A stretch of 64,000 nt of DNA from an uncultured Gammaproteobacteria bacterium (GTDB taxonomy: Bacteria; Pseudomonadota; Gammaproteobacteria; UBA4575): contig CAJQLY010000017.1 in assembly GCA_905479295.1 (NCBI GenBank), positions 12,380 through 76,379 of the forward strand. The letters are read 5' to 3'. Positions 3,497 to 11,652 of this stretch are shown here, one piece after another. A program made the translations under genes and the position numbers. A model generated the notes under the pieces. The model saw only the letters and a program-made list of their open reading frames with translations, had not been told where the DNA came from and did not search any database. Numbering within the stretch: the first letter of the stretch is position 1; every line of letters begins with the position of its first letter.

Positions 3497-3518
3497 TTCA
3501 ATAAATATATTTATTGAA
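3497..3518. promoter_or_regulatory. perfect 22-bp AT-rich palindrome TTCAATAAATATATTTATTGAA upstream of the SOUL gene (candidate operator)
   Basis: Read directly. The two 11-nt halves are exact reverse complements. It lies 17-38 nt upstream of the minus-strand ATG at 3480. Confidence 0.4.
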
Positions 3519-3807
3519 ACCATTAATCATCTAATATTCTTAGTGTCATTACCTTGTCTTTGATAATTTGGATGCGTAATGTTCACACTATATATACACC
3601 AGGTCAGTTACCCATTGCTCATTATAATCGACGAGCTTTGGCTCTAATAGGCTCGGATTTATGCTTGCCTGTTGGAACCGTTTTAGCTTAGGCCTGCATG
3701 GCGTCAGGACATGACCCTTTAGTCAATTCTTTACCAAATAAGTATTGATTCATTCGCAAGCTACTGTAGGACATATTAGACCGAAATTAATATATGGGAT
3801 ATTAGAG

Positions 3808-4620
3808 TTATATGCGTTGCTTGTCCTTGTAAGGTAGTAGTATGCGGAAGCACGTGCCTTCGCCCAGAGTGCTATTGACTTCAATTTTTCCAGAATGATT
3901 GTTCACTACATTGTCGACCATATGTAACCCTAACCCAGTACCTTTACCTTTTTCCTTTGTTGTGTAGAAAGGCTCGAAGATGAAGGGTAAATCTTTTTCT
4001 GCTATGCCATGACCATTGTCGCTAATTTCAATAATGGCTATCTTCTGATCGTCCTCTTGTTTCATACGAGTACTTAAAGTGATTAGGCCATCCTGTCTAA
4101 TTGAGTGGACAGCATTCATTAACAAGCTTAGGAATGCTTGGCCTAATCGTCCTTCGCTGGAATAGATTAAATCTAATTCATTTAAGTCCCATTGTATGGT
4201 GGTTTGAAATTTGATTTCATTAAAGGCTAGTTTGACGGTTTTTTGAAGTAGCTTGTTGACATCGACTAGCTGCCAATCGATATCTTTGGCATGGGTGAAA
4301 CTCATGAGATCGGTAACGATGTTGCGAATCCGATTAGCCCCGAGTAAGCAGTCCTCTAATAGACTAGCTGTTTCTTTTTGTATGTAGTCGAAATCAACCT
4401 CTTTTTTCATGCGTTCTAAGCGTTGAATAAGGATAATCCTCTCCTGCTCACTAGGCCTGTGTGGAGAAGTAATTTCTTCTTGCAAGCTAAGGATTTCAAT
4501 ACAGTGTTTACGGTAATCGGCAAGCATTTCAAGGTTGCTAGTGAGGAAGCCAACTGGATTATTTATCTCATGGTTGGAGAGGTTGGCTAGGATGTATAAT
4601 TTGAGACAAAAAAAAGCCAC
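3808..4620 (-). CDS. histidine kinase transmitter core only (HisKA + HATPase_c), no sensor or TM region; possibly a 5'-truncated remnant
   Basis: H-box SNHEINNPVGF sits at residue ~17. G1 (DNGHGI) and G2 (GTGLGL) boxes are present. The only start upstream of the phospho-His is GTG 4618-4620, inside the terminator stem of the upstream gene. No response regulator is adjacent. Confidence 0.6.
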   Translation of the reverse strand: MAFFCLKLYILANLSNHEINNPVGFLTSNLEMLADYRKHCIEILSLQEEITSPHRPSEQERIILIQRLERMKKEVDFDYIQKETASLLEDCLLGANRIRNIVTDLMSFTHAKDIDWQLVDVNKLLQKTVKLAFNEIKFQTTIQWDLNELDLIYSSEGRLGQAFLSLLMNAVHSIRQDGLITLSTRMKQEDDQKIAIIEISDNGHGIAEKDLPFIFEPFYTTKEKGKGTGLGLHMVDNVVNNHSGKIEVNSTLGEGTCFRILLPYKDKQRI

Positions 4621-4634
4621 GTTTTTAACGCGGC
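4608..4634 (-). terminator. intrinsic terminator after the 67-aa ORF
   Basis: The minus-strand RNA reads GCCGCG-UUAAAAA-CGUGGC followed by U8. The stem is 6 bp including one G-U pair. Confidence 0.6.
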
Positions 4635-4666
4635 CTTTTAAATAACTAATTTACTGCTCAGGGTAA

Positions 4667-4870
4667 CTATTCGTGAGAACCCTTTTCCGCGTGGGCATCA
4701 GCAATCACTTCTGTCGCGAGTTTTGAATACTCTTCGCGATAGCCATCAAGCTCTGAACCGTCTTCTGGGGTGAAGTACTCTTCTGCTGAAACGCCGTTCG
4801 CACGGTCTAACTCGCTGAATTTCTTCTGCATTTCCAGCATTCTTTTGATCTTATCCTGCTTAGAGCTCAT
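4667..4870 (-). CDS. hypothetical acidic 67-aa protein
   Basis: ORF with GGAGGA immediately upstream of the ATG and a terminator directly downstream. I recognise no family. Confidence 0.5.
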   Translation of the reverse strand: MSSKQDKIKRMLEMQKKFSELDRANGVSAEEYFTPEDGSELDGYREEYSKLATEVIADAHAEKGSHE

Positions 4871-5041
4871 ATATCCTCCGAACGAAAAGCTTTGGTGTTT
4901 AATTTGCGTATCTTGGGCCGAAGTCTAGGAGATCGGCGCGGACACTTCTGTATCTCTATTGAGAGGCTGCGGGCAGCAATAGTCTTGATTCCTTCCACTG
5001 TTGCTGCGTGATGGTTAGCCTGCTGGGTGTCCTACTCGGGC

Positions 5042-5383
5042 CTAGTAACCGCCTTTACGACGACTTTCTGGTAATCCACCGATACGACCACCCTGCTTGC
5101 TAGGGTCGCCCGGGAATAGGTCATATAAGGTTTTTGCATTAACACTTTTGTCATCCCAGGCTTTGCTCATGGCCTTCACCATATTGCGGGTGTTGGGCTG
5201 ATTGCCTGCATTGTTGATGAATTCATCACGTAAGAAGTTAATTACATCCCAGTGACGATCAGTTAATTCTACGGTTTCTTCCTTGGCAATAATTAGTGCC
5301 AATTCTTTCGACCACTCTTCAATATTGACTAAAAAGCCACTGGCTGTGGTTTCTATGCTTTTTCCATCTATTTCAAATGCCAT
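5042..5383 (-). CDS. DsrC/TusE-family paralogue lacking both conserved C-terminal cysteines
   Basis: 113 aa, aligning along its whole length with the canonical DsrC at 11320-11652 (HW[DE]VINFLR[DE].., LY[DE]LFP). The C-terminal arm reads SKQGGRIGGLPESRRKGGY instead of AKQACKYAGLPKPTGCV. AGGAGA RBS. Confidence 0.85.
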   Translation of the reverse strand: MAFEIDGKSIETTASGFLVNIEEWSKELALIIAKEETVELTDRHWDVINFLRDEFINNAGNQPNTRNMVKAMSKAWDDKSVNAKTLYDLFPGDPSKQGGRIGGLPESRRKGGY

Positions 5384-5517
5384 AACAGTATCTCCTGAAC
5401 TCCAAATGTATGAAAAAAATCGCTTGCTGGAAGCTCGCTGAGCTTAACGCACTCTGCTAATTTCACTCAAGTTCTGTGATCAATATATCCTGAGTAAAGC
5501 GACTCTTATAAAGGAAG

Positions 5518-6207
5518 CTATTTTTCCTGTGCCTCACTGATCGCGTCAATACCCTTATGAGGTAGAAACAAACCACAACCGAGTAATCGCCCGAGACCGA
5601 TACCGCGTTGCTGTAATAATACGGATTGTGCAACATCAATGCCGTCTATCATGAGGCTGCGCGTCACAGCAGGCTGGCCATTGAGTATTAATTGGGTAAT
5701 CTTTCCACACATCATCTTTTTTGGCCGTATGCTAAGCAGCTGTAGCTCTTTTAGGGCTTGTTGTAGAAAGGCATCCTCATCCTCTACCGGGCCTAAATCA
5801 ACATAGCGGCAAAATAAAGTGGTTAAGCGTGATAGTGGTCTAACGCTTGATTTCCCAAACTCTAAAGTGACACCATCGACTTCGATATGATCACCCTGTA
5901 AGGCTTCAGTTGTTGCCAGTCTTTGATTGCTGATACGAAGCGTAAAAAGAGTGCGTCGTGAAGGATAGATGAGATCATCCGGATTTTGTGGGCGTATCCA
6001 ACCATTGCCTGATTCAGCACCATGAATAGAAAAAATACCACTGTATGGGTCTGTTACTAACCACGGTAGTTTGTCGCACATAGCCTGTGATAGGGCGTCG
6101 ATATGGTCTAGCTTGAGTTGCGCACACTTAATCCTGAAGTTGACATCGATAATGTCTTCGGGGACTTTATATTCCGCTTCTTCGTTCGTGTCCTCATTCC
6201 AATACAT
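5518..6207 (-). CDS. Cas6/Cmx6-like RAMP-superfamily protein (orphan; no CRISPR context)
   Basis: 229 aa. The C-terminal glycine-rich loop RGIGLGRLLGCGLFLPHKG matches the RAMP/Cas6 G-loop pattern. The N-terminus MYWNED..VPEDIIDVNFRI and the length match my recollection of the type I-MYXAN Cas6/Cmx6 family. Not verified by HMM. Confidence 0.55.
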   Translation of the reverse strand: MYWNEDTNEEAEYKVPEDIIDVNFRIKCAQLKLDHIDALSQAMCDKLPWLVTDPYSGIFSIHGAESGNGWIRPQNPDDLIYPSRRTLFTLRISNQRLATTEALQGDHIEVDGVTLEFGKSSVRPLSRLTTLFCRYVDLGPVEDEDAFLQQALKELQLLSIRPKKMMCGKITQLILNGQPAVTRSLMIDGIDVAQSVLLQQRGIGLGRLLGCGLFLPHKGIDAISEAQEK

Positions 6208-6243
6208 GGTTTCTATCCGTTGATATCTTGCACAAAGCGTATT

Positions 6244-6435
6244 TTAGGAGCGAGCGGAAGTGAAGACGGCTTCTAATTCATCTTCCCAGTTTTCCGGGGT
6301 ATCTTTAAAGGGTGGGCGTACGTCCATCTGAAAAAACATCTCACCAGCGACAGCACGCTTAATAATTGCACTTTTTAGTTCATCGAAAGACTGCATGCTG
6401 AATTCTTCGATTAATATGTCGCTTAGTGCGAGCAT
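6244..6435 (-). CDS. hypothetical 63-aa acidic protein
   Basis: The track ORF was trimmed to the internal ATG (MLALSDILIEEF...). This start lies 4 nt after the TAG of the upstream dioxygenase. The longer version overlaps that gene by 86 nt. Confidence 0.45.
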   Translation of the reverse strand: MLALSDILIEEFSMQSFDELKSAIIKRAVAGEMFFQMDVRPPFKDTPENWEDELEAVFTSARS

Positions 6436-6439
6436 TCCG

Positions 6440-7318
6440 CTACTCCTCTGAAAATAAGCGATTATGGGAGCGCACACGATACAGCAGTCGCTGTTGCTGC
6501 GGAATACTACCGTTAGTAAAGGCACTGCGGGAATGCAAGATGTTGTTGCATATCAGGCCTTCACCTGGCTTGAGGCGATAGTCTAAGACAGCTTCACTCT
6601 GTTCAAGCTGTGCGTTAATTTGCTTTACGGCCGCTGCAACGCGGCTGCAAGCCTTCCACTGAATGCTGCGGCTGCGTGCGGTATAGCGCATATTCAGACT
6701 GCCATCATTGGGGTTGTTGAAAAATACAGGCCCACTTTGCACCGGTCTAAGTTCAACGCCATTCTCAATGTTAGCTGGAATCGTCATGCTATCTGTGGCC
6801 ATTAAAGCGTGGCAGAGCTCGGGGTCTTCGTCGTATAACGAGATATAGAGCAACTCATGATTCAGTAGGCGATTACTGCCACCTTCGGCAGCGGCTTGAG
6901 CGCAATGTAAAAGAAAAGAACGGATCTCATGTCCCGGTGGATTGTAATAACCATCGGTATGCCAATTTAAGCGTTGGTCTGAATAGGGGATATAACCTTT
7001 TGTGCGCCCCATAGGCATGACTTGTAGTGTGCTGATACTGTCTTCATCTGCACACAAATTTTGATCTAGCTTGTGCATACCAATTTGTTCGCAAAAACGT
7101 TGTATAATAGTGCGATCAACGGGTTCTGTTTGATTGAACCGATAGATCGCCATATTGTTTTCTGCGACCTGTTTGGTCAACTGTAGGTGCTCGCCCTCGG
7201 TTAGTAGTGAGGGGTTTTGAATGACGATAGCGGGTTCCGTTTTTAGACGAGACCAAGCTGCAAGTTTATGTGCTCGCCATTCTGGGTAATGCTCGAGGTG
7301 ATTGAGCTGAGACTGCAT
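6440..7318 (-). CDS. TauD/TfdA-family Fe(II)/2-oxoglutarate dioxygenase
   Basis: 292 aa. HxD facial-triad motif in LNWHTDGYY, distal His in NNILHSRSAF, and a length typical of the family. Confidence 0.75.
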   Translation of the reverse strand: MQSQLNHLEHYPEWRAHKLAAWSRLKTEPAIVIQNPSLLTEGEHLQLTKQVAENNMAIYRFNQTEPVDRTIIQRFCEQIGMHKLDQNLCADEDSISTLQVMPMGRTKGYIPYSDQRLNWHTDGYYNPPGHEIRSFLLHCAQAAAEGGSNRLLNHELLYISLYDEDPELCHALMATDSMTIPANIENGVELRPVQSGPVFFNNPNDGSLNMRYTARSRSIQWKACSRVAAAVKQINAQLEQSEAVLDYRLKPGEGLICNNILHSRSAFTNGSIPQQQRLLYRVRSHNRLFSEE

Positions 7319-7631
7319 AGAAATCCTGTAGAGTACGGCGCTAGTTGAGACGAAAAATGATTCTAATTACGGTTTATACTCTAAGTTACTGATTTAAAGA
7401 AATAAAAAATGACTCATAAAGTGACGTTTTAGGCCATTTCTGGTCATACAGAGTTGTTTGTTGGCGCCGCGTATATCCCAGTTGAGATAAGGCCCCTACA
7501 GCACCGCACCCCATAGGTAAGGTTTCGATGTTAGGGGGCGCTAACTAGACTCTACGGCATACAACTGGGTTCAAAACTCAGTGCGCTAATGCGTGGAAAT
7601 TAATTCTATTAGGAACGAGGAGAAATACAAA

Positions 7632-8900
7632 ATGGCTAACCAGCATCATGACACTCCAATGCTTGATGAGTTGGAAAATGGGCCTTGGCCTAGCTTCATT
7701 TCTGGCATCAAACGTCTGCGAGACCAGCACTCTGATGAGCGCATCAACGGTATGGCAAACGACTTGCTGGGGCAGCTAGAGCACTCATACGAGACTCGTA
7801 AAGGTTACTGGAAAGGCGGCACCGTCAGTGTCTTCGGATATGGCTCAGGTATTATTCCTCGCTTCTCAGAAGTTGGCAGCTCGTTCCCAGAATCAAAAGA
7901 ATTCCACACACTACGTGTGCAGCCTCCAGCAGGTAACTACTACACTACTGACATGCTACGTCAGCTTGGCGATAGCTGGGAGAAATGGGGTTCAGGTCTC
8001 GTTACTTTCCACGGTCAGACAGGCAACATCATGTTTATCGGTACTACTACTGATAACACTCAGCACTTCTTTGATGAAGTGAACGAATACGGTTGGGACC
8101 TTGGTGGTGCCGGTCCTTGTGTTCGTACCGGTATGTCTTGTGTTGGTGCAGCACGCTGTGAGATGTCTAACATCGACGAAATGCGCATTCACCGCACACT
8201 ACTAAATAACTTTACTGATGACGTTCACCGTCCAGCACTACCTTATAAGTTCAAGTTTAAGGTGTCTGGTTGTGGTAACGATTGCATGAACTCTATTGAG
8301 CGTTCTGATTTTGCGATCATCGGTACTTGGCGCGACAACATGAAAGTCGACCAAGACGAAGTGAAAGCATTCGTTGAAAAGAAAGGCCGTGAATACGTTA
8401 TTGATAACGTAGTAACACGTTGCCCAACGAAAGCATTGTCACTAAAAGATGACAACACTATGGAAGTCGACAACCGTAACTGTGTACGTTGCATGCATTG
8501 CATGAATGTCATGGTTAAGGCGCTTGGCCCAGGTGAAGATAAAGGCGCAACTATCCTAATCGGTGGTAAGCGTACGCTGAAGATTGGTGACTTGATGGGA
8601 ACAGTTGTTGTTCCATTCATGAAGCTTGAATCAGATGAAGATTACGAAAAGCTAACTGAAATGGCTGAAGAGACTATCGACTTCTGGGCTGAGAATGGCC
8701 TAGAGCACGAGCGTTGTGGTGAGATGATCGAGCGTATCGGTCTGGTTAACTTCCTCGAAGGTGTCGGTATTGAAGTTGATCCAAACATGGTCAACGATCC
8801 TCGCCAAAGTTCATACGTGCGTATGGATGATTGGGATCAGGAAGCTGAGAAATGGTTTAACCGTAAAGCTGAAGAAAAAGCAGCTGCTGCTGCAGGTTAG
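7632..8900 (+). CDS. dsrA: dissimilatory sulfite reductase alpha subunit (oxidative type)
   Basis: Start set at ATG 7632, preceded by GAGGAG. Siroheme/[4Fe-4S] Cys motifs CVGAARC and CGNDC, plus a ferredoxin-like insert CPTKAL..CVRCMHC. Followed by dsrB and dsrEFHC. Confidence 0.95.
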   Translation: MANQHHDTPMLDELENGPWPSFISGIKRLRDQHSDERINGMANDLLGQLEHSYETRKGYWKGGTVSVFGYGSGIIPRFSEVGSSFPESKEFHTLRVQPPAGNYYTTDMLRQLGDSWEKWGSGLVTFHGQTGNIMFIGTTTDNTQHFFDEVNEYGWDLGGAGPCVRTGMSCVGAARCEMSNIDEMRIHRTLLNNFTDDVHRPALPYKFKFKVSGCGNDCMNSIERSDFAIIGTWRDNMKVDQDEVKAFVEKKGREYVIDNVVTRCPTKALSLKDDNTMEVDNRNCVRCMHCMNVMVKALGPGEDKGATILIGGKRTLKIGDLMGTVVVPFMKLESDEDYEKLTEMAEETIDFWAENGLEHERCGEMIERIGLVNFLEGVGIEVDPNMVNDPRQSSYVRMDDWDQEAEKWFNRKAEEKAAAAAG

Positions 8901-11319: not shown

Positions 11320-11652
11320 ATGGCAATTGAAGTAGACGGCCAAAGTTACGAAACTGACGAAGAAGGTTACCTAGAAGACTTAAACCAGTGGCGCCCAGAA
11401 TTGGGTAGCGCAATGGCTTTAGCTGACGGTGCACCTCTTGATGAAAACCACTGGGAAGTTATTAATTTCCTACGTGAGTACTACGAAGAATACCAAATTG
11501 CACCAGCAGTTCGTGTGCTAACTAAAGCTATCGGTAAGAAGCTCGGTAAAGATAAGGGTACAAGTAAGTATCTTTATGAGTTATTCCCTTACGGTCCTGC
11601 AAAGCAGGCTTGTAAGTATGCGGGTCTACCAAAGCCAACTGGCTGCGTATAA
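11320..11652 (+). CDS. dsrC: DsrC, canonical
   Basis: 110 aa. The C-terminal arm QACKYAGLPKPTGCV carries both conserved cysteines. Confidence 0.95.
   Translation: MAIEVDGQSYETDEEGYLEDLNQWRPELGSAMALADGAPLDENHWEVINFLREYYEEYQIAPAVRVLTKAIGKKLGKDKGTSKYLYELFPYGPAKQACKYAGLPKPTGCV

Follow-up and report, generated by a model that had tools for sequence, protein, structure and literature searches.

A cysteine-free DsrC-fold protein with a conserved K-G-G-Y arm, encoded beside the reverse Dsr genes of an uncultured gammaproteobacterium

Results

A DsrC paralogue without cysteines at the dsr locus

Sulfur oxidation in the cytoplasm of free-living and symbiotic Proteobacteria runs chiefly through the reverse Dsr system. 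Although the list of its named parts (DsrABEFHCMKLJOPNRS) is taken to be complete, many aerobic lineages also retain a look-alike of DsrC, the gamma subunit and substrate protein of dissimilatory sulfite reductase. Here, we describe one such protein, encoded in a 64,000-nucleotide stretch of contig CAJQLY010000017.1 from an uncultured gammaproteobacterium (the window). Its gene occupies positions 5042..5383 of the minus strand (stop codon included), starts with ATG and encodes a 113-residue, cysteine-less DsrC paralogue of the RspA type, referred to below as KGGY-DsrC. Direct inspection of the sequence located an AGGAG ribosome-binding site on the same strand (5392..5396), 8 nt 5' of the ATG. 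The gene is the fourth of five (dsrQ, a 63-residue open reading frame, a Cas6-like gene, KGGY-DsrC and a 67-residue open reading frame), which run divergently from dsrABEFHC.

KGGY-DsrC matches PF04358 with an E-value of 4e-33 and 114.5 bits (cut-off 24.9), covering profile positions 1-102 of 107, and TIGR03342 with an E-value of 3.5e-28 and 98.1 bits (cut-off 53.5). Both scores exceed the curated cut-offs, which places the protein in the DsrC/TusE/DsvC superfamily. An AlphaFold2 model built with 122 homologues as input reached a mean predicted local distance difference test (pLDDT) score of 90.8 and a predicted template modelling (pTM) score of 0.84, with lower confidence for the last residues; in the model of the protein alone, the C-terminal arm has a pLDDT of ~55. 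The closest known structure is Allochromatium vinosum DsrC (1YX3), with a template modelling (TM) score of 0.86 and an E-value of 6e-9, followed by Archaeoglobus fulgidus DsrC and then six more DsrC/TusE entries; for 1SAU, the TM score is likewise 0.86. Beyond these, the structure search with the model returned winged helix-turn-helix domains at non-significant E-values (> 0.25). As judged from the model, KGGY-DsrC has the predicted DsrC fold, comprising a β-hairpin, a helical bundle with a helix-turn-helix-like motif and a C-terminal arm.

The window also encodes a true DsrC (11320..11652, plus strand; PF04358 E-value 5e-44 over the full profile), which carries both CysB and CysA (...KQACKYAGLPKPTGCV) and served as comparator. 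The two proteins share 39% identity. For a paired comparison, we aligned 55 KGGY/DsrC pairs with MAFFT, each pair being taken from one locus. Within these same-genome pairs, 28 columns were both invariant and identical between the KGGY proteins and true DsrC, and they include the body and hinge features HW..LR, R..K, LFP, P.KQ and GLP. The initial annotation of the window had described the globular part as well conserved, and this description holds: the DsrC motifs are kept, and HWDVINFLRDEF is found in KGGY-DsrC. The globular core is acidic in both groups, with a mean isoelectric point of 4.8 in the KGGY proteins against 4.7 in DsrC, and its net charge in the KGGY proteins is -5.4.

The C-terminal arm is rebuilt and strictly conserved

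KGGY-DsrC ends in ...LFPGDPSKQGGRIGGLPESRRKGGY, that is, ...GLPESRRKGGY, and contains no cysteine in its entire length. The rebuilt arm, G103-LPESRRKGG-Y113, is encoded at 5045..5077 on the minus strand. In the paired alignment, Gly99 lies under CysB (KQGGR against KQACK) and Gly112 under CysA (GGY against GCV), and two residues are inserted after GLPES. The net charge of the arm is +2. These observations bear out the earlier claims that glycine occupies both cysteine positions and that the arm is two residues longer and more basic than that of DsrC.

Across 122 aligned members from three clades, the invariant columns are R66, K70, K84, P91, P94, K96, Q97, G103, L104, K110, G111, G112 and Y113, the last of which is also the last residue of the protein. 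Most of these positions are DsrC features as well; K-G-G-Y and a second motif, G(N/Q)xPNxR, are specific to the group. The latter follows the HW..LR helix, reads GNQPNTR in the window and has near-invariant G60, P63 and N64 in addition to the invariant R66, whereas DsrC has QIAPAVR at this place.

The ending proved equally constant in larger sets. In a collection of 5.8 billion proteins, the closest 120 clusters (73-94% identity) all end in a ...GLPESRRKGGY-type arm and 119 of them lack cysteine; 116 are 113 residues long and the remaining four have 111-116 residues. The K-G-G-Y-stop ending is kept in 358 database homologues and in all 80 loci that homology searches brought up from species-representative genomes. 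At the DNA level, the terminal pattern G-L-x5-K-G-G-Y-stop is found in the window at 5042-5077, and each of the 85 loci that carry the gene has one match (85/85). In contrast to the constant amino acids, the codons vary freely: among 93 sequences, all four glycine codons, both lysine codons, both tyrosine codons and all three stop codons are in use. As these 93 sequences were chosen by the DNA pattern of the K-G-G-Y-stop ending, the invariance itself rests on the independent homologue and locus sets. Because synonymous codons vary while K-G-G-Y-stop stays, the tail amino acids and the chain end are held by purifying selection. On these sequence comparisons, the selection on the arm is shown to be strong, and the most constrained novelty of the protein to be its predicted flexible arm together with the free carboxy terminus.

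The protein is neither an error, nor a decayed copy, nor TusE

The initial annotation had raised the concern that a sequencing or frame error at the 3' end might conceal a cysteine-containing arm. Neither of the remaining frames at the 3' end encodes a cysteine-bearing or DsrC-like arm, and the ending is kept across homologues and loci, so that we rejected a frame error. It had further asked whether cysteine-less forms might be common and randomly located. They are indeed common, with ~2000 homologous clusters at E <= 1e-5, but their location is not random (see below).

Loss of both catalytic cysteines is also what a decaying or neutral dsrC duplicate that had lost its function would be expected to look like. 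Against such a dead copy stand the ~2000 clusters themselves, a length held at about 109-113 residues, a tail that stays invariant despite saturated synonymous change, an identity of 67-97% across species-level genomes and an intact ribosome-binding site. We rejected the dead duplicate on these conservation data and give it virtually no credence.

TusE, which belongs to the same family model (TIGR03342), accepts sulfur from TusBCD in the tRNA 2-thiouridine relay and needs its penultimate cysteine for this. KGGY-DsrC has no such residue and scores 87.5 bits against the TusE equivalog NF008562, far from the cut-off of 191, and it was rejected as a TusE. Many homologues are labelled 'tRNA 2-thiouridine synthesizing protein E' (TusE) by JGI; lacking the penultimate cysteine, the KGGY subfamily is wrongly annotated by this name. 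Given the established persulfide and trisulfide chemistry of DsrC and TusE, a protein without cysteine cannot carry sulfur on a thiol, in agreement with the earlier statement that no sulfur-carrier role is possible. As far as its sequence conservation indicates, KGGY-DsrC is a real accessory protein, neither an error nor a decayed copy.

KGGY-type proteins form a defined subfamily

When 1.84 billion cluster representatives were searched without a profile, a terminal [RG]KGGY turned out to be common to several divergent lineages, and two further searches retrieved hundreds of clusters each, for a clade ending in GLPQSTRKGGY and for one ending in GLPKPFGKGGY. The ESRRKGGY and QSTRKGGY arms belong to Gammaproteobacteria, the QSTRKGGY clade including Thiogranum and Thiohalobacter, and the KPFGKGGY arm to Burkholderiales-type genomes (Burkholderiales, Rhodocyclaceae). 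Altogether, the KGGY form is found in hundreds of sulfur-oxidising Proteobacteria, mostly adjoining dsrAB.

In a maximum-likelihood tree, the gamma-type KGGY clades group together with 99/97 support, apart from all cysteine-bearing DsrC and TusE proteins. The beta-type KGGY clade was placed elsewhere in that tree, but an approximately unbiased test on the 113-column alignment does not reject a single clade (p 0.236). Other cysteine-less DsrC lineages have unrelated tails, such as ...GLLRTKGEH or ...GLPVPSDSADPSFGSVQ, and 'cysteine-less' is therefore not one thing.

Cysteine-less members of the DsrC family have been named RspA, for 'regulatory sulfur-related protein' (Venceslau 2014, as far as it is relayed in PMC9371685 and PMC8477390). 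Cysteine-less DsrC homologues were noted in a Solemya symbiont (PMC4287430) and in Methylovirgula HY1, where a comparable DsrC-like gene, MHY1_00075, is three genes away from dsrQ/dsrAB (PMC9371685). Like RspA, KGGY-DsrC is a DsrC-fold protein of sulfur oxidisers without the functional cysteines. However, RspA is defined negatively, by the missing cysteines, and its regulatory role is presumed, whereas the KGGY group has positive criteria, namely its invariant arm and its pattern of co-occurrence. The differences from DsrC are equally clear, since KGGY-DsrC has neither the penultimate CysA nor the CysB-X10-CysA arrangement of a bona fide DsrC, is encoded in a divergent cassette outside dsrABEFHC, and has an arm, GGLPESRRKGGY, that departs from the DiSCo DsrC motif AGLPKPTG(not N)CA (PMC8477390). 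By these sequence features, the KGGY type is a sharply defined DsrC-fold subfamily inside the loosely defined RspA group. Either the terminal KGGY rule or a 36-nt DNA pattern cleanly separates it from DsrC and TusE.

The KGGY gene belongs to a conserved cassette divergent from dsrA

The first gene of the cassette (6440..7318, minus) encodes a TauD/TfdA-family Fe(II)/2-oxoglutarate dioxygenase (PF02668, E-value 4e-20) equivalent to 'dsrQ', a name given to the tauD-like gene upstream of dsrA by Lenk 2012, for which the account in PMC7596348 mentions a speculative sulfonate role. It is followed by the small open reading frame of 63 residues (6244..6435, minus), for which 40 of the 54 complete loci have a tblastn match (35-90% identity) and to which a Pfam scan assigned no family. 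Directly upstream of the KGGY gene in the same operon lies the gene for a 229-residue Cas6/Cmx6-like protein (5518..6207, minus; PF09559, E-value 1e-48), whose score against TIGR02807, 96.5 bits, falls below the cut-off of 98.85. A conserved acidic open reading frame of 67 residues (4667..4870, minus; tblastn 38-99% identity in 50 of 54 complete loci) is located 3' of the KGGY gene and closes the cassette. Since an intrinsic-terminator-like hairpin of 13 pairs with a T run (4611..4639, minus) comes after it, the unit is predicted to be a five-gene operon. On the other side, the open reading frame of dsrA (7593..8900, plus), with its likely start at the ATG at 7632, points away from the cassette and is followed by dsrB, dsrEFH and dsrC.

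The same gene order was found in 80 species-representative genomes, comprising Gammaproteobacteria metagenome-assembled genomes, 'Thiotrichales', the Olavius Gamma 3 symbiont, Sulfuriflexus, Porisulfidus and Granulosicoccaceae. Of 68 loci, 63 have the Cas6-like gene directly upstream of the KGGY gene and 58 encode DsrQ within 1.5 kb of it; a divergent dsrA is no more than 4 kb away in 58 of 61, so that the placement beside Cas6-like and TauD-like genes seen at the outset is systematic across the surveyed loci. Thiohalobacter has the same layout, with the 67-residue gene at the same downstream position. The cassette is rearranged in Burkholderiales, where the order, again divergent from dsrAB, is DUF6967, Cas6-like, tandem TusA, KGGY-DsrC, a 223-residue protein of unknown type and DsrQ.

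Over 54 species-level loci, the median identity to the window's protein is 75% for KGGY-DsrC, 74% for DsrE, 85% for DsrC and for DsrA, and 91% for DsrB. The operon mates drift faster, with medians of 45% for the Cas6-like protein and 43% for DsrQ. By this measure, the sequences show that KGGY-DsrC is kept under a constraint nearly equal to that on the core Dsr proteins.

Some loci depart from the common layout. The tandem TusA of Burkholderiales (161 residues; 7504-7989 of our locus L085), immediately upstream of the KGGY gene, has both CPxP cysteines intact, which pairs a real sulfur carrier with a thiol-less DsrC look-alike. In Porisulfidus (6600-8000 of locus L075, and locus L079), a toxin-antitoxin-like insert, made up of an antitoxin-like 105-residue open reading frame and a 202-residue one, breaks the cassette by separating dsrA from the KGGY gene; the genome retains the Cas6-like gene ~760 kb away. 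In genome G578, DUF6967 and the Cas6-like protein are naturally fused into a 295-residue chain (locus L118, 3228-4115, minus) next to the KGGY gene; being fused there, the two may interact, as a Rosetta-stone hint. No natural fusion that involves the KGGY protein was found. A PADLOC scan for defence systems gave only generic Cas6 models, on the neighbouring gene.

An operator-like inverted repeat lies in the dsrQ/dsrA spacer

The spacer between the divergent dsrQ and dsrA genes contains a conserved 16-bp inverted repeat, TATCCCAGTTGAGATA (7474..7489, no strand assigned), of the form TATCYC-N4-GRGATA, a candidate operator. This pattern matches once in each of 51 loci, invariably within the dsrQ-dsrA spacer and 142-221 nt upstream of the dsrA ATG (for instance at 5897-5912 of locus L004, outside the window). 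The half-sites are TATCTC and TATCCC in 50 of 52 cases, the Y/R pair being T/G in 34, C/A in 16, T/A in 1 and C/G in 1. A further conserved block, CGCACCCCATAGGTAGGATTTTG ... CTAGACT, comes after the repeat. The repeat is missing from the Thiohalobacter and Burkholderiales loci, though KGGY genes are present there. From its sequence, it looks like an operator, with nothing that ties it to the KGGY protein.

The KGGY gene tracks one type of DsrA

We searched 401 genomes across the phylum with a 36-nt pattern, GGNYT-N16-AARGGNGGNTAYTRR, for which 0 chance matches are expected in the window; the resulting counts are phylogenetically non-independent. The pattern matched 10 of the 401 genomes, one of them being a chance match in a genome without DsrA. 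DsrA was detected in 62 genomes. Where DsrA is at least 61% identical to that of the window, the KGGY gene is present in 9 of 11 genomes; where the identity is 47-57%, it is present in none of 51. All 9 KGGY-positive genomes combine a DsrA of at least 61% identity with DsrQ, and a proteobacterial-type rDsrA together with a TauD-like DsrQ is found both in the window and in 8 of the 8 other KGGY-positive genomes of the sample. The sampled KGGY-negative genomes contain only true DsrC, TusE and a CysB-only type.

DsrQ is encoded in 9 of 9 KGGY-positive genomes (the window's own included) and in 38 of the 53 other DsrA-positive genomes. The Cas6-like protein (PF09559) is encoded in 5 of these 9, again counting the window's, and in 0 of the 53. 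The occurrence is therefore nested, the Cas6-like set (5) lying within the KGGY set (9), this within the TauD-like DsrQ set (47) and this in turn within the DsrA set (62). The Cas6-like gene is lacking from four KGGY-positive genomes that belong to another class, probably Alphaproteobacteria, and in them the KGGY gene stands alone among housekeeping genes. It is unlinked from dsr in these four and in genome G157. Since the gene persists without a Cas6-like gene and away from dsr, the function of its product appears not to be bound to Cas6 or to the local promoter.

Seven of the genomes with a distant DsrA (47-57%; G285, G305, G309, G317, G333, G341 and G345) have a DsrQ homologue 3-4 kb from dsrA on the same strand, with neither a KGGY gene nor a Cas6-like gene. 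Many of the distant-DsrA genomes have two dsrA copies.

Discussion

KGGY-DsrC as a proposed docking accessory of the reverse Dsr system

We propose, with a probability of roughly 0.4, that KGGY-DsrC is a non-thiol accessory of the oxidative (reverse) Dsr system, which docks its rebuilt arm into a partner protein. The conserved DsrC body would sit on the partner, and the flexible arm would insert its K-G-G-Y carboxy terminus into a pocket, so that the tip binds instead of reacting and the partner enzyme would be gated or modulated in a non-catalytic manner. The likeliest partner would be rDsrAB, or another DsrC client such as DsrMK, because the gene tracks one rDsrA type and outlives the loss of both the Cas6-like gene and the linkage to dsr. 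DsrEFH is a less likely partner. Judging from the sequences, the constraint on the arm fits insertion into a protein pocket better than contact with DNA. A role as decoy or adaptor is possible.

Several points weigh against this proposal. No direct evidence names the partner. The substrate channels of DsrAB, as sulfite reductases, are lined with basic residues, for which an arm of charge +2 is no obvious fit. Mirror-tree comparisons of KGGY-DsrC with DsrC, DsrE, the Cas6-like protein, DsrQ and the 67-residue protein gave weak partial correlations of 0.08-0.36, with no specific co-evolution. The real partner could also be the Cas6-like protein or DsrQ, whose genes are tightly linked to that of KGGY-DsrC in the operons of Gamma- and Betaproteobacteria, and the operator-like palindrome in the dsrA control region keeps a regulatory reading alive. 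As for DsrEFH in particular, its binding of DsrC is reported to depend strictly on the CysA equivalent (PMC3397948), which speaks against this partner.

Alternative functions

The regulatory reading is the default of the literature for RspA. In it, the helix-turn-helix-like motif would bind the dsrQ/dsrA control region and tune dsr expression, which we consider unlikely, if still the foremost of the alternatives. Among Gamma- and Betaproteobacteria, the gene is carried by an operon that diverges from dsrA, the inverted repeat stands upstream of dsrA in 51 loci, and the nearest folds after DsrC are the winged helix-turn-helix domains, though at E-values above 0.25. A. vinosum DsrC is itself said, in work of Grimm et al. 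from 2010, to bind DNA upstream of dsrA. Cysteine-less DsrC-like proteins are called probable regulators in PMC9371685, which cites Venceslau 2014 to this effect. However, the palindrome is missing from Thiohalobacter and Burkholderiales loci that do have KGGY genes, the core is acidic, the strongest constraint falls on the flexible arm and the terminal carboxylate and not on the helix-turn-helix helices, the identity is as high as in core enzymes, and the gene is unlinked from dsr in five genomes (the four of another class and G157). The initial annotation had favoured a regulator, a decoy or a nucleic-acid binder; the acidic core, the location of the constraint and the unlinked genes leave the regulator and the nucleic-acid binder without specific backing. 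A precedent comes from DsrD, long presumed to bind DNA and now recognised as an allosteric activator of reductive DsrAB (PMC8794893), which demonstrates that a Dsr accessory protein can contain a helix-turn-helix without being a DNA binder.

The arm might instead be a substrate or carrier for enzymes of the cassette, with DsrQ modifying Lys110, an arginine or Tyr113 to produce an O2-dependent switch or a new working group. We hold this to be somewhat less probable than the regulator. KGGY genes occur only in DsrQ-containing genomes (9 of 9 in the sample) and in operon linkage with DsrQ, and the arm offers an invariant lysine and a terminal tyrosine on a flexible support. DsrQ retains the HxD...H/R motifs (WHTDGYY, HSRSAF), and its best NCBIfam matches, weak and far below cut-off, are TmpA (2-trimethylaminoethylphosphonate dioxygenase, E-value 1.1e-11), trimethyllysine dioxygenase and gamma-butyrobetaine dioxygenase. 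On the other hand, DsrQ must have a KGGY-independent job, being present without the KGGY protein in 38 of the 53 other DsrA-positive genomes, TauD-family enzymes mostly act on small molecules, and the mirror-tree gave no co-evolution signal for the pair (partial r 0.16). The literature speculates on sulfonates as DsrQ substrates and reports dsrQ mainly from (facultatively) aerobic sulfur oxidisers, the former speaking against a modified arm and the latter for it (PMC7596348). Less probable again is an RNA-linked module with the Cas6-like protein, such as a ribonucleoprotein that would process or stabilise dsr transcripts with the basic arm contacting RNA. Its appeal lies in the Cas6-like gene, which stands directly upstream in 63 of 68 loci and is confined to KGGY-positive genomes (5 of 9 against 0 of 53), and in the DsrC family member TusE, which acts beside a tRNA-modifying enzyme. 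The PF09559 gene is, however, lacking in four KGGY-positive genomes, and the natural fusion joins DUF6967, not the KGGY protein, to the Cas6-like protein. Scanning 3500-7700 against Rfam yielded just two matches, both at chance level, and the folds of both spacers flanking the gene were no different from shuffled sequence (z -0.13 and -0.78), for which reasons a structured RNA beside the gene was dropped. We also modelled with AlphaFold2 a read-through Cas6-like-linker-KGGY chain, based on 25 loci with both genes in frame, with stops read as glycine and unpaired rows added. It yielded two domains that were each well folded but not connected to one another (pTM 0.57), and the arm pLDDT was still ~55, a weak negative.

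Docking of the arm and its modification could also be combined. By analogy with known oxygen sensors, an arm modified by the co-inherited DsrQ (for example with Lys110 or an arginine hydroxylated, or Tyr113 oxidised) would be a new kind of working tip on the DsrC scaffold, which in its modified or unmodified form might plug or open rDsrAB, an O2-sensing switch on the sulfite-forming step. We regard this as a long shot, on a par with the RNA-linked module. If true, it would provide aerobic sulfur oxidisers with an oxygen-sensing switch whose logic resembles hydroxylase-based O2 sensing.

Relation to known systems

In the proposed docking role, KGGY-DsrC would resemble DsrD, both being small, non-catalytic Dsr accessories with a helix-turn-helix-type fold. 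The analogy is one of logic, with no homology claimed: the DsrD fold is an unrelated winged helix, and DsrD goes with reductive DsrAB and is missing from sulfur oxidisers (PMC8794893). In the searchable literature, which does not take in key subscription papers, we found neither the invariant KGGY arm nor the link to a Cas6 fold nor the nested distribution described. What many aerobic lineages keep is a DsrC look-alike with near enzyme-grade conservation that is unable to do DsrC chemistry and is often encoded beside a Cas6-fold protein and an oxygenase. If KGGY-DsrC does modulate rDsrAB, it would be to the oxidative pathway what DsrD is to the reductive one, and the reading of dsr gene sets in metagenomes would change.

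Other DsrC-family proteins

The window's own genome, which is 77% complete, encodes a third DsrC-family paralogue of 106 residues (158394-158705 of contig C2; 1483-1803 of locus L002, minus), directly downstream of prmC and prfA. It ends in ...YGYGQQACKIAGMRLPRKLWLDV, keeping CysB and having no penultimate cysteine. We saw no canonical TusE in this 77% complete assembly. The CysB-only type (...QQACKIAGMRRPRGWSTG) is also found in the KGGY-negative genomes G335 and G513. Finally, the KGGY protein of G578 (locus L118) retains a cysteine at the CysB position (KQGCRIAGLPQPYGKGGY).

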